Shown one piece after another: positions 2,095 to 50,937 of a DNA stretch of 64,000 nt. The notes under the pieces were generated by a model that was given only the letters and a program-made list of their open reading frames with translations, searched no databases and was not told where the DNA came from. This DNA is from Candidatus Aenigmatarchaeota archaeon (lineage in GTDB: Archaea; Aenigmatarchaeota; Aenigmatarchaeia; CG10238-14; SpSt-28), in assembly GCA_038997165.1 (NCBI GenBank), contig JAWBAK010000001.1:372595-436594 (forward strand), in the 5' to 3' direction. A program made the position numbers and the translations under genes. Within the stretch, counting starts at the first letter, position 1. Each line of letters opens with the position of its first letter.

Positions 2095-2243
2095 GCCGGG
2101 GTCGCCTAGTGGACATGGCGGCGGACTTGAGTGATAGATTGGCGTGAAACTGATAAGAGATATAAAAAATGATGTGGGTGTCGAAATAAGAAAGAAATCC
2201 GCTGGGCTCTAAGCCCGCGTGGGTTCGAATCCCACCCCCGGCG
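2095..2243 (+). tRNA. tRNA-Ser(TGA) with 65-nt intron at 37/38 (2132-2196)
   Basis: GCGGA-CT TGA G[intron]A-TCCGC; long variable arm GGGCTCTAAGCCC; G73. Confidence 0.93.
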
Positions 2244-19489: not shown

Positions 19490-19616
19490 TGCGGGGGGTG
19501 GGATTTGAACCCACGACGGCTCTACGCCATCGGGTTTCTTATCATTTATTCAAAGCTTAAGATTTTATATCTTTATCTTAAGCCCGACGCCCTTGGCCAG
19601 GCTAGGCGACCCCCGC
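19490..19616 (-). tRNA. tRNA-Leu(TAA) with 41-nt intron (19536-19576)
   Basis: TCGGG-CT TAA G[intron]A-CCCGA; long variable arm; A73. Confidence 0.93.
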
Positions 19617-21105: not shown

Positions 21106-22257
21106 ATGATTGAAATTGCATTAGTCGGAAAGCCAAACTCTGGAAAATCTACATTTTTTAAAGCAGCAACTCTAATGGATGTTAAAATTTCAAATATTCC
21201 TTTTACAACATTAAAACCAAACAAAGGAATTGCTTACGTATCAACTCAATGTGTTTGTAAAGAATTTAACGTTAAGTGTAATCCACAAGATGGATTTTGC
21301 ATAGATGGATTAAGATTTGTTCCAATAGTTCTTTGGGATGTTCCAGGATTAATTCCAGAAGCTCATAAAGGAAAAGGTTTAGGAATAGAATTTTTATCAG
21401 CTATAAATCATGTAGATGGAATTGTTTATATAATTGATATAAGTGGTAAAACTGATTTAGAAGGAAAAGAGATAGAATTTTTAAATCCAATAGAAGAAGT
21501 AAAATTTCTTATAAATGAATTGGTTCAATGGTATAAACAAAATATACAAAAACACATTCCTAAATTTTTTAAAGATAAAAAAGAATTAATAGATGTTTTA
21601 TCTCAAAAACTTAGTGGATTAAAAATTAAAAGGGAACATTTAGAAAAACATATTGATAAAATAGATGATTTAAATAATTTTTCTAAAGCGCTTTTGTTTG
21701 AAAGTAAAAAAATGATTATTGCTGCAAATAAAATTGATGAAAAAAATTCTGAAAAAAATTTAAAAGAATTAAAAGAATTTTTAGAGAAAGAAAATATTAA
21801 TATAAAAGTTGTTGAATGTAGTGCATTAAGTGAATTAATTTTAAGGACTTTAGATCAAAAAGGAATAATAAAATACAATTTTAAAGATTTTGAAATTTTA
21901 AAGAAAAATGAATTAAGTAATGAACAAATAAACGCATTAGAAAAAATTAGAGAATTGTTAAAAAAATATAATGGAAGTTTTATATTGAATGTTTTAAATA
22001 CTTTAGTTTTTGATGTTATGCAATATAAAGTTGTTTTTCCTGTTGAAAATGAAAATAAATTAAGCGATAAAAAGGGAAATATTTTACCAAATGCAATTTT
22101 ATTAGAAAAGGATGCAAAAACAATAGATTTAGCAGAAAAAATTCATTCTGAAATAGCTAAAAATTTCTTATATGCAATAGAGGTTAAAAGTAGAAAAAGA
22201 TTAGGTAAAGATTATATTTTAAATCATAGAGATATAATAAAAATATATCATGCATAG
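21106..22257 (+). CDS. ychF: YchF/Obg-family ATPase/GTPase with TGS domain
   Basis: GKPNSGKST, PFTT, DVPG, NKID, C-terminal TGS. Confidence 0.9.
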   Translation: MIEIALVGKPNSGKSTFFKAATLMDVKISNIPFTTLKPNKGIAYVSTQCVCKEFNVKCNPQDGFCIDGLRFVPIVLWDVPGLIPEAHKGKGLGIEFLSAINHVDGIVYIIDISGKTDLEGKEIEFLNPIEEVKFLINELVQWYKQNIQKHIPKFFKDKKELIDVLSQKLSGLKIKREHLEKHIDKIDDLNNFSKALLFESKKMIIAANKIDEKNSEKNLKELKEFLEKENINIKVVECSALSELILRTLDQKGIIKYNFKDFEILKKNELSNEQINALEKIRELLKKYNGSFILNVLNTLVFDVMQYKVVFPVENENKLSDKKGNILPNAILLEKDAKTIDLAEKIHSEIAKNFLYAIEVKSRKRLGKDYILNHRDIIKIYHA

Positions 22258-22306
22258 TCAGAAGTACTCCTTTTCATCATTATTCAGATGCGGCGGCATT
22301 CTTCAT
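22258..22306 (-). ncRNA. C/D-box sRNA
   Basis: ATGAAGA - ATGCCGCCGCAT - CTGA - ATA - ATGATGA - AAAGGAGTACTT - CTGA: canonical boxes with two 12-nt guides. Confidence 0.88.
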
Positions 22307-23684: not shown

Positions 23685-23824
23685 GCCGGGGTCGCCTAGC
23701 GGAAATGGCGCCGGCCTCGAGTTAAATGATAAGCTCTGGGGTAGCTGAAAGATAATGATGATTTTGTTATAAGAGAAAGCCGGTGGGCTCTAAGCCCGCG
23801 TGGGTTCAAATCCCACCCCCGGCG
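23685..23824 (+). tRNA. tRNA-Ser(CGA) with 56-nt intron (23722-23777)
   Basis: CCGGC-CT CGA G[intron]A-GCCGG; long variable arm; G73. Confidence 0.93.
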
Positions 23825-25064: not shown

Positions 25065-25163
25065 TGGGGCCGCTGGGATTTGAACCCAGGTTAACGGGTT
25101 TCCTCATTTTATCGGTGCTCCATTTCTGGAGCCCGCCGTCCTACCTGGCTAGACTACGGCCCC
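25065..25163 (-). tRNA. tRNA-Trp(CCA) with 26-nt intron (25100-25125)
   Basis: GCGGG-CT CCA G[intron]A-CCCGT. Confidence 0.93.
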
Positions 25164-48935: not shown

Positions 48936-49445
48936 ATGGAATTAATTAGAATAATAATTCTTTCAGCGGCTTTTTTAGTTGTAGTAGGTGTTGGGGGTTT
49001 AATATATAATGCTAATTTTGTTCAAATAGAAGCTGCTACTTCTAATTTTGTATTAGTTTTAGTTGCGTTATTACTTTTAATTTTTGCGGCTTATTTGCTA
49101 TTAAAACAGGATATAAAACTTCAATTCAAAAGATTATTTTTAGAAAAAAGCGATGAAGCAACATTGCTATATGTTAAAAACGAATTAAAAAAATTAAAAA
49201 ATACTTTAGATGAAATTAAAAAAATAAATAAGAGGAATGCAAATAAGGTTTTAAAAAACGTAAAATTAGGCTTAGAAAAGTTAACTCCATATAAACCATA
49301 TTTATCAAATATTTTTATCGAAGGAAAATTCTTGGAAAATATGAATAAAATACTTTCCTTCAATAAAATTACTTCTAACAATCTTTCTGAATTTTCTGTT
49401 GCAATTAAAGAATTAAAAGAAGAATTAAAAGAACTCAATTTATAA
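48936..49445 (+). CDS. Hypothetical membrane protein (two N-terminal TMs plus helical domain)
   Basis: Hydrophobicity pattern. Confidence 0.65.
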   Translation: MELIRIIILSAAFLVVVGVGGLIYNANFVQIEAATSNFVLVLVALLLLIFAAYLLLKQDIKLQFKRLFLEKSDEATLLYVKNELKKLKNTLDEIKKINKRNANKVLKNVKLGLEKLTPYKPYLSNIFIEGKFLENMNKILSFNKITSNNLSEFSVAIKELKEELKELNL

Positions 49446-49480: not shown

Positions 49481-49581
49481 GCCGGGGTAGTTTAGTGGTA
49501 GAACGCCGCGCTCATATTTAATGAGCTTTGAATCGATGATAAGAAACGCGGAGGTCGTGGGTTCAAATCCCACCCCCGGCA
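49481..49581 (+). tRNA. tRNA-Met(CAT), elongator type, with 29-nt intron (49517-49545)
   Basis: CCGCG-CT CAT A[intron]A-CGCGG; acceptor stem GCCGGGG favours elongator Met over initiator Met or Ile2. Confidence 0.9.
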
Positions 49582-49944
49582 TTGTAGTCAATTTTTATTT
49601 AAATCTAAATAAAACAAAGATGTTAGATTTGTGTTTTGTTTTTGTTAATGATGTGCGAAATTTTTATTAATGAAAAATATTTGGGTATCAATTAAAGAAT
49701 AGTGACATAAGTTTTTAAATTATTTTATGATTTCAATTAGATTAGTTTTATTTCTTTTGATGATAACTATAGGATTTATTGTATTAATTTCTGGAACTAT
49801 CCTTTACTTTACGATTGATGGAAAAGTCTGGAAAAAATAGAGATTTTTGGAATTAGCAAAAAGGATTGGAAATAAATTCATTCTAATATCTTAATAGAAG
49901 GATTATTCTTCAATATTTTAGAAGCTTAATAAGAAATAAATCAT

Positions 49945-50533
49945 ATGAAAAATAAGAATTTTTTCAAAAAAGTTGCAAGGATTTATGAATACAGAGATAA
50001 AAAGAAGAAATTCAAGAAGAATAAAAAGACTATAAAAAGAAAACTAATTGAATTGTGTTTTTATATATTGGTTGCTGGTAATAATTTGGAAAAAACTTTA
50101 GAAATTTGAGAAAAAATCTAAAAATTTAGGTAAAGATGAGTTAAGTAGAACCTAAAAAACTTAGAATATAGATTTTATAACATTAGGTCTAAATACATAG
50201 TAGAAAATCGAGAAAAATTAATTTATTAGAAGATTTTAAATGTGATGGGAATTTTAGAAAAATTTTGATAGAAAATTTCTATGAGATTAGGTATAAGAAG
50301 GCTATCGTTTTTTTAGAAATATAGACTGCAATAACTTTTCTATAATTGATAGACATGTCTTAAATTTTTTAAAGAGTTTTAATTTTAAAAAGGAAGTTCT
50401 AAAAAGTTTAAATGAAAAACTTATCTAGAATTAGAAAAAATACTTAAAAAATAGTACACGAAATTGGAATTACATTGGCTAAGTTAGATTTTTGTATTTT
50501 TTATTATCAAGCAAATAGAATTCATAAAAAATA
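49945..50533 (+). pseudogene. ogg: Decayed 8-oxoguanine DNA glycosylase/N-glycosylase-lyase (Ogg2-type)
   Basis: Fragments in mixed frames with stops: ELCFYILVA, YRFYNIRSKYI, a GLG(Y)K-..FLRN-like stretch, IIDRHVL, TYLELEKILKK, GITLAKLD. Confidence 0.75.
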
Positions 50534-50937
50534 AATATTAAATTAGTTATCGTGGTCTATGATTTTCGATATTTTACTAATTTTCATTTTTTGTTTCTTT
50601 TAATTACTCAATATTTTATTAAATTAATTCTTTCAAGAGTTTTGTATCAATTTTAAACATGTTTCTAGTTCTGTGATTTGAAATAAATATCACTGCTAAT
50701 ATTTCGAATAATAATGTCGAATACATAATAATATAATAGATGAAGAAAAACATTTCTCAATATTTTAAGCAAATTTTGAAATTTTGATAGATAGCTTATA
50801 TTTTCTTTTTATTATAAGATTTAAATATTTTCTTCTTTATATGTTTTTCTCTCGTATAGAATATACATACATACACTACCTCTTTTTATTGATATCTTCT
50901 TTTTATTTTAATAAATTATTTTGGTTCCATTTTTACT

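Follow-up and report, generated by a model that had tools for sequence, protein, structure and literature searches.

The 29-nt intron within the gene for elongator tRNA-Met in this archaeal genome is probably a natural one-sided guide of the box C/D type, which would act in cis on the unspliced tRNA and bring about 2'-O-methylation of its own wobble base (Cm34). The initial annotation had read the intron as a self-guide for C34, and this reading gains support from the anatomy of the intron, its recurrence in other tRNA genes, the covariation of its boxes, a test of its register, and the presence of the methylation proteins, with the methylation step itself putative.

The gene lies in the window, by which we mean the whole 64,000-nt stretch of DNA that was analyzed, in a genome of 651,930 bp in four contigs with a GC content of 24.5%. 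The stretch is matched by 13 DNA and 0 RNA sequencing runs from 5 studies, labelled as hot-spring metagenomes. Positions 49481 to 49581 of the plus strand match the Rfam tRNA model end to end (model positions 1 to 71, 65.6 bits, E value of 5.2e-12). The gene was missed by ARAGORN with default settings, and the Ser(cga) tRNA that ARAGORN called when introns were allowed was rejected as a miscall of it. The anticodon stem is formed by 49506-10 and 49547-51, and the loop reads CU-CAU-A, 29 nt, A, with the intron placed between nt 37 (49516) and nt 38 (49546), the usual 37/38 site; nt 37 is A, as is the final base of the intron, so that placement at 36/37 would give an identical mature tRNA-Met. 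The second CAU tRNA of the genome is, as judged from its A1-U72 pair and GGG/CCC anticodon stem, the initiator, and genes for both Ile(UAU) and Ile(GAU) are present; on these grounds the intron-bearing CAU gene is assigned to elongator tRNA-Met. It is intergenic, the preceding open reading frame ending at 49445. Downstream, about 1.3 kb (49582-50937) is free of open reading frames of at least 80 amino acids, and a C-box-like AATGATG occurs near 49647.

The intron string given in the initial annotation for 49517-49545 matches the sequence letter for letter. The parts of the gene are as follows:
49481..49581, plus strand: elongator tRNA-Met(CAU) gene with intron (Rfam tRNA; G1-C72, T54)
49517..49545, plus strand: intron of 29 nt at 37/38 (sequence, Rfam, parsed tRNAs)
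49510..49515, plus strand: target strand, nt 31-36 (GCUCAU), with C34 at 49513 (sequence; numbering from the stems)
49517..49520, plus strand: leader UUUA, which with A37 makes up the 5-nt loop of the predicted cis hairpin (RNAfold minimum-energy structure)
49521..49526, plus strand: guide AUGAGC, antisense to nt 36-31 (matches the reverse complement of G31-U36 at 49510-15 exactly)
49527, plus strand: N+1 (U), not paired with the target but able to pair with C' position 7 (N+1:C'7 paired in 28-31 of 44 arms)
49528..49531, plus strand: D'-like box UUGA (GA invariant; the two preceding bases covary with C' positions 5 and 6)
49532..49535, plus strand: K-loop spacer AUCG (sequence and length vary among relatives)
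49536..49542, plus strand: C'-like box AUGAUAA (covariation; CUGA-N4-UGAUGA layout in the ordinary sRNAs of the genome)
49540..49543, plus strand: UAAG, central-helix strand of the BHB splice motif, pairing nt 35-32 (3 of 4 pairs; C34 opposite A is a mismatch)

Counted upstream from UUGA, the fifth base (N+5) is G49523, which pairs with C34 (49513). In the putative K-loop, G49538 and A49539 would form sheared pairs with A49531 and G49530, U49540 would lie opposite U49529, and A49541 would pair with U49528. The boxes depart from consensus (UUGA rather than CUGA, AUGAUAA rather than UGAUGA), and the departures compensate each other, U replacing C in D' and A replacing G in C'. The guide is kept in 25 of the 26 unique tRNA-Met arms found by BLAST in relatives, the exception being L010 with TCGAGC, and a fixed offset of the GA together with the downstream UGA is kept in all 26. 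The leader is more variable (0 to 13 nt across 45 tRNA-Met arms of relatives). The guide-target duplex has 6 bp here; in certain relatives the leader pairs as well and lengthens it to 7-10 bp. The Met intron holds a guide for nt 34 only, with a duplex that is wholly exonic on the target side, and it has no second box that could define a 12-nt spacer. No second GA/UGA motif pair that could make a terminal C/D K-turn is present in the 101-nt gene; the only other K candidate in the gene is built on the guide's own AUGA and lacks a self-target. Since the element is without a terminal C/D motif, a 12-nt spacer, or a duplex of 8-12 bp, we regard it as a new variant rather than a strict member of the C/D class.

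The same module recurs in the genome. A strict test was applied to introns of at least 10 nt among 47 ARAGORN tRNAs parsed with an intron at 37/38. Its box part called for NNGA and, downstream, a UGA followed by two bases able to pair with the two that precede GA. The nt-34 class further called for 5 or more of the 6 possible pairs when N+2..N+7 are set against nt 31-36, N+5:nt 34 among them, and the nt-39 class for 6 or more of 7 pairs with nt 39 placed at N+5. Nine of the 15 introns of this genome passed, against 0.035 expected from 200 shuffles: seven in the nt-34 class [Leu(CAA), Leu(UAA), Gln(UUG), Lys(UUU), Glu(UUC), Met, and Trp] and two in the nt-39 class [Cys(GCA) and Tyr(GUA)]. The other six, Ala(CGC), Asp(GUC), Thr(UGU), Ile(UAU), Ser(UGA), and Ser(CGA), failed. 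Among the other introns of three relatives (G012, G025, and G027), 14 of 26 passed, with 0.04 expected from shuffles. The boxes of the paralogs compensate each other, as in UUGA/UGAUA, UUGA/UGAAA, CUGA/UGAAG (Lys), CCGA/UGAGG (Trp), and GCGA/UGAGC (Cys). Four of the sister modules that passed the strict test are placed as follows:
19536..19576, minus strand: tRNA-Leu(UAA) intron, 41 nt, guide UUAAGC, toward U34
25100..25125, minus strand: tRNA-Trp intron, 26 nt, boxes CCGA/UGAGG, toward C34
9267..9292, plus strand: tRNA-Cys(GCA) intron, boxes GCGA/UGAGC, N+5 opposite C39 (nt-39 class)
G000 C2:11128-11269: tRNA-Tyr(GUA), nt-39 class

Two introns that failed are longer and resemble full two-sided C/D RNAs, namely, those of tRNA-Ser(UGA) (65 nt, window positions ~2131-2196, plus strand) and tRNA-Ser(CGA) (56 nt, ~23722-23777, plus strand); neither had a self-target in the module or register test.

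From GC to its 3' end, the tail of the Met intron is identical to that of the Leu(UAA) intron at 19 of 21 positions, a likeness that the initial annotation took to suggest transfer of the module from one tRNA gene to another, followed by retargeting. The likeness does not establish such a transfer. All of the shared tail bases are equally constrained in Met and Leu, by the pairing with G31-C32, by both boxes, and by the pairing of UAAG with C32-U33-N34-A35 for splicing. The box spacer differs between Met and Leu(UAA), and at 4-5 nt it holds little signal. In G025, the Leu(UAA) intron has CUGA/UGAAG and the Met intron still has UUGA/UGAUA. Transfer of the module between tRNA genes is possible.

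The tRNA-Met gene served as a BLAST query for 40 relatives spread over seven families of the order and yielded loci L005 to L034. With the window's own copy (L006) left out, 27 of the 29 intron-bearing tRNAs at these loci passed the strict test, against 0.05 expected. One of the two failures, L010, has a guide that pairs with nt 31-34 only; the other, L024, is an ARAGORN misparse, and direct reading shows the module to be present. Together with pattern-found arms of distant families, these made a set of 45 unique Met arms, 44 of them with an intron of at most 50 nt. A MAFFT alignment of the 44 whole arms misaligned the bases after the UGA of C', and covariation was therefore scripted under two fixed rules, using either the last or the first UGA. 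D'1:C'6 was paired in 40 of 44 arms under the last-UGA rule (U-A 30, A-U 7, C-G 2, and G-C 1) and in 41 under the first-UGA rule. D'2:C'5 was paired or U-U in 42 arms under both rules (by last UGA, U-U 23, U-A 9, C-G 7, U-G 2, and G-C 1). When the C' boxes were permuted among the sequences, none of 5,000 permutations matched the observed pair total, a comparison in which related genomes do not count as independent samples. To judge from these arms, the four Watson-Crick pair types at D'1:C'6 need repeated double changes. Covarying box pairs include UUGA/UGAUA, AUGA/UGAUU, UCGA/UGAGA, and GCGA/UGAGC, and the boxes covary in the manner of a K-loop or K-turn; in distant families, the box spacer is a covarying hairpin, indicating a true K-turn rather than a K-loop. 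The guide also tracks nt 31, with A31 accompanied by AUGAGU in L027, L030, and the L192-206 group.

A Met-specific pattern was found in 146 of the 371 genomes of the phylum, and its reversed control gave 8 matches in 7 genomes; this count and the family counts that follow are lower bounds, as variants like L010 are missed and many genomes are incomplete. In the organism's own order the pattern was present in 85 of 117 relatives, spread over its families f1 (12/18), f2 (48/70), f3 (3/3), f4 (1/1), f5 (20/23), f6 (0/1), and f7 (1/1), and it was rarer outside the order (e.g., 9/21 in f8, 11/44 in f21, and 0/9 in f25). In two introns of relatives, a 23-nt tRNA-Met intron (L009 in G006) and a 28-nt tRNA-Trp intron (L055 in G025), the C' box crosses the 3' splice site and uses exon A38.

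The register of the module was examined in all 38 K-loop candidates of 41 introns from G000, G012, G025, and G027. For each candidate, the best pairing of N+2..N+8 was sought anywhere in the same pre-tRNA (at least 6 of 7 pairs), with no preset register. N+5 fell opposite nt 34 in 15 of the 38 candidates and opposite nt 39 in 7, and any other position received at most 3. Perfect 7/7 matches numbered 8 at nt 34 and 4 at nt 39, with 4 single ones elsewhere. The members of the nt-39 class are Thr and Cys in G012 and G025, Thr in G027, and Cys and Tyr here. In this class, the duplex takes in the last two bases of the intron, which change along with the guide, and these guides must therefore act on the unspliced pre-tRNA. 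The nt-39-class K-loop loci include L035, L044, L048, L054, and L059.

The genome encodes fibrillarin (269.5 bits), an adjoining Nop5 (155.3 bits), and L7Ae (106.3 bits), all above the Pfam cutoffs. A second L7Ae-family match, at G000 C1:486636-486890 on the plus strand (50.5 bits), contains one in-frame TGA. Fibrillarin is present in 356 of the 371 genomes of the phylum, so that its co-occurrence with the module is nondiscriminating. Two-sided sRNAs are also present, with the order C box, 12 nt, CUGA, 4 nt, UGAUGA, 12 nt, CUGA; their C boxes are AUGAUGA and, in the second, AUGAAGA:
G000 C1:263694, plus strand: stand-alone box C/D sRNA with the CUGA-N4-UGAUGA K-loop layout
~22250-22306 of the window, minus strand: stand-alone box C/D sRNA with the CUGA-N4-UGAUGA K-loop layout

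A separate guide for C34 was sought in the genome; of its nine ATGAGC-N-NNGA sites, all but that of the Met intron lack a partner box, and no such guide was found by this pattern. Beside the 3' end of tRNA-Thr(CGU), an 11-nt copy of the guide and D' box (ATGAGCTTTGA; G000 C1:30759, minus strand) lacks a C' partner and may be either a chance occurrence (~0.3 expected) or a relic.

We propose the following scheme for how proteins would bind, how methylation would take place in cis, and in what order the steps would occur. In the unspliced transcript, nt 31-36 would fold back on AUGAGC in a 6-bp hairpin, and the adjoining UUGA and AUGAUAA would form a K-loop with two sheared G-A pairs, a U-U, and a U-A. 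The K-loop would be bound by L7Ae, which would recruit Nop5-fibrillarin, and fibrillarin would methylate the 2'-OH of the base opposite the guide nucleotide that lies five positions upstream of the D'-like box. The resulting Cm34 would stop tRNA-Met from reading AUA. After methylation, the RNA would refold into the splice motif and the intron would be removed. Against this scheme stand the single K motif of the Met intron, the shortness of its duplex (6 bp), the departure of its boxes from consensus, and the need for G31 to give up its pairing with C39 in favor of the guide. We know of no structural precedent for a target tethered to its own guide by a 5-nt loop.

Folding energies were predicted for the anticodon arm. 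The RNAfold minimum for 49506-49551 combines the stem 27-30/40-43 with the hairpin of nt 31-36 and the guide, closed by the 5-nt loop (-10.8 kcal/mol), and the guide hairpin is the predicted ground state in six of the seven nt-34 arms of the genome, Glu being the exception. When the splice-motif fold was enforced on the Met arm, its energy was -5.6 kcal/mol, about 5 kcal/mol costlier than the guide fold. The helix between nt 32-35 and UAAG has 3 of 4 pairs in Met and 4 of 4 in U34 tRNAs, and the outer helix has about 3 bp. UAAG overlaps C' positions 5-7, as it does in 30 of 45 tRNA-Met arms, and the K-loop and the splice helix are therefore mutually exclusive, the 3' strand of the K-loop serving as a strand of the splice helix, so that an arm folded for methylation could not at the same time be folded for splicing. 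The same overlap means that conservation of the C' box does not come from the K-loop alone, part of it being constrained by the splice-motif helix as well. A broader reading, which we put forward only tentatively and regard as possible but rather doubtful, is that the tRNA introns of the phylum are kept as one-sided self-guides that mark nt 34 or nt 39 before splicing. L7Ae would block splicing until methylation had occurred, because it would hold the strand that the splice motif needs; the introns would act as a quality checkpoint and would represent a living example of the simple "primordial" guide whose existence was proposed on the basis of engineered RNAs.

Other explanations of the module were weighed. 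It may be that the K-loop is an L7Ae-binding or folding element concerned with the folding, stability, or splicing timing of the pre-tRNA, and that the antisense stretch hides the anticodon loop with no methylation at all. L7Ae binds K-turns of many non-guide RNAs, according to published abstracts; there is only one K motif; and the shared use of one strand by C' and the splice helix in 30 of 45 arms makes a switch plausible. However, we consider this explanation unlikely, for it does not account for a duplex that starts at N+2 and places nt 34 or 39 opposite N+5, for a G31 that is pulled from its stem and covaries with the guide, or for the inclusion of tRNAs with known guided wobble methylation.

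Alternatively, the excised 29-nt intron, linear or circularized by the ligase, could serve as a mini guide that methylates C34 of the precursor or mature tRNA-Met in trans. Reviews report that later work demonstrated trans action of the tRNA-Trp intron guide in Haloferax (Singh 2004, as cited there) and that archaeal tRNA introns and C/D sRNAs circularize, and the Nanoarchaeum tRNA-Met intron is described as accumulating as a stable RNA (Randau 2012, PMC3491384). The nt-34 target is also wholly exonic, which makes the mature tRNA a possible substrate. However, 6 bp is weak between separate molecules; the predicted ground state is the cis hairpin, and leaders in relatives lengthen it (e.g., 9 bp with a 4-nt loop in L193); and the nt-39 class, at least, needs the unspliced pre-tRNA, given the covarying last two intron bases. 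A ruler running through the circular intron was tried and rejected as too variable, the box-to-guide distance in the circle ranging from ~9 to 26 nt, so that the ruler is lost. Action in trans seems quite improbable to us. That the module reflects chance or plain splice-motif complementarity, its boxes being accidents of AT-rich sequence, is very hard to credit: pairing with the anticodon loop is common among 37/38 introns, and UGA and GA are frequent at this GC content, but shuffles gave 0.035 to 0.05 passing introns per set against the 9, 27, and 14 observed, the reversed pattern reached 7 of 371 genomes against 146 with the real one, the splice-motif helix comes from a different, 3'-proximal strand, and the boxes covary.

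Guides for nt 34 of tRNA-Met exist elsewhere as separate RNAs. In Haloferax, sR-tMet is a stand-alone C/D sRNA for this position. The initial annotation had stated that a separate sRNA usually serves in other archaea, in agreement with a review in which nt 34 of Pyrococcus Met, Leu(CAA), Leu(UAA), and Trp is sRNA guided; all four of these tRNAs fall among the seven nt-34 tRNAs here. In humans, SNORD97/SCARNA97 is described as a stand-alone guide for nt 34 of tRNA-Met. Such sRNAs share with the introns their target, nt 34, in the same Met, Leu, and Trp tRNAs. Unlike the Met intron, they are separate, two-sided RNAs that act in trans with guides of ~10-12 nt.

The closest known intronic counterpart in target and position is that of euryarchaeal pre-tRNA-Trp (Pyrococcus sR50; Haloferax volcanii), where reviews describe the 37/38 intron as a two-sided C/D RNA with two guides, which in Haloferax direct modification of its own nt 34 and nt 39. 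In the passages of the 2014, 2021, and 2024 reviews that deal with intron-embedded guides, tRNA-Trp alone is given, termed a "unique example." The elements described here resemble it, as far as the reviews go, in lying at 37/38, in addressing their own nt 34 (and nt 39), in obeying the N+5 rule, and in the exclusivity of guide and splice folds. They differ in that the Met element fits a single K-loop and a single 6-nt guide into 29 nt, and in occurring in tRNA-Met and eight other tRNAs. Duplexes of the pre-tRNA-Trp type span the exon-intron junctions, which is the case here only for the nt-39 guides (Cys and Tyr, and Thr of relatives).

The elongator tRNA-Met intron of Nanoarchaeum equitans is reported to be 66 nt long, to carry a GC hairpin besides boxes C and D, and to form a stable RNA (Randau 2012, PMC3491384). 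Like the present one, it interrupts an elongator tRNA-Met gene of a DPANN archaeon and shows features of box C/D RNAs, and it was proposed there to be a methylation guide; it is, however, more than twice as long as the 29-nt intron, and the parts of that report drawn on here name no target. The 69-nt tRNA-Met intron of a relative (L203 in G082) has the guide and AUGA followed by UGAUGA, a 19-nt stretch, and CUGA; on its motif order it looks like an intermediate between the Met-type and Nanoarchaeum forms, and it may be a fuller C/D-like form that links the 29-nt and 66-nt types.

In architecture, the nearest likeness is to engineered one-sided guides. MMG5, with a K-loop, and MMG4, with a K-turn, are reported to be specific and efficient once L7Ae is bound, and the same account describes guides in nature as two-sided (Wang, Yang and Ye 2022, PMC9670817). 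As described there, both have a 5' guide, a D box, a loop, and a C box, with the target opposite guide position 5, as here. In contrast to the Met intron, they are synthetic and were assayed with Sulfolobus proteins at 70°C, with 12-nt guides, trans substrates of 8-11 bp, and consensus boxes; the half-mers were tested in vitro at 8-11 bp, and shorter substrates were poorer (PMC9670817). A fully single-site Methanocaldococcus RNP is reported to have been active with its site specificity lost (Hardin and Batey 2006). A full-text literature search, covering the articles proper, returned no account of short tRNA introns that harbor a K-loop guide of the one-sided kind.

To our knowledge, one-sided guides are otherwise only engineered RNAs. 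If the proposed scheme is true, the module would be a conserved natural one-sided guide, found in nine tRNAs of a 0.65-Mb genome and widespread in the phylum, and it would mean that the minimal guide architecture functions in cells. It would also supply a concrete selective reason for the retention of tRNA introns, as well as a tiny model, consisting of a ~100-nt pre-tRNA and three proteins, for the choice of site and the order of modification and splicing. Cm34 has been described as locking C34 to G, thereby preventing the misreading of AUA or UGA (Wolff 2020), and a putative Cm34 on tRNA-Met is a plausible defense against misreading of AUA codons, which are abundant at 24.5% GC.

A loose pattern scan was also made of other genomes. 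Among the matches listed, 1 of 120 loci was a tRNA, and the rest, mostly bacterial, were rejected as chance; the scan carries no weight for the distribution of the module beyond the phylum. The one tRNA, L165 from Candidatus Micrarchaeota, another DPANN phylum, carries a tRNA-Met intron whose elements are arranged as in the module (AUGAGU, AUGA, a GC hairpin, and AUGA), the bases flanking its boxes being unpaired by the rule.
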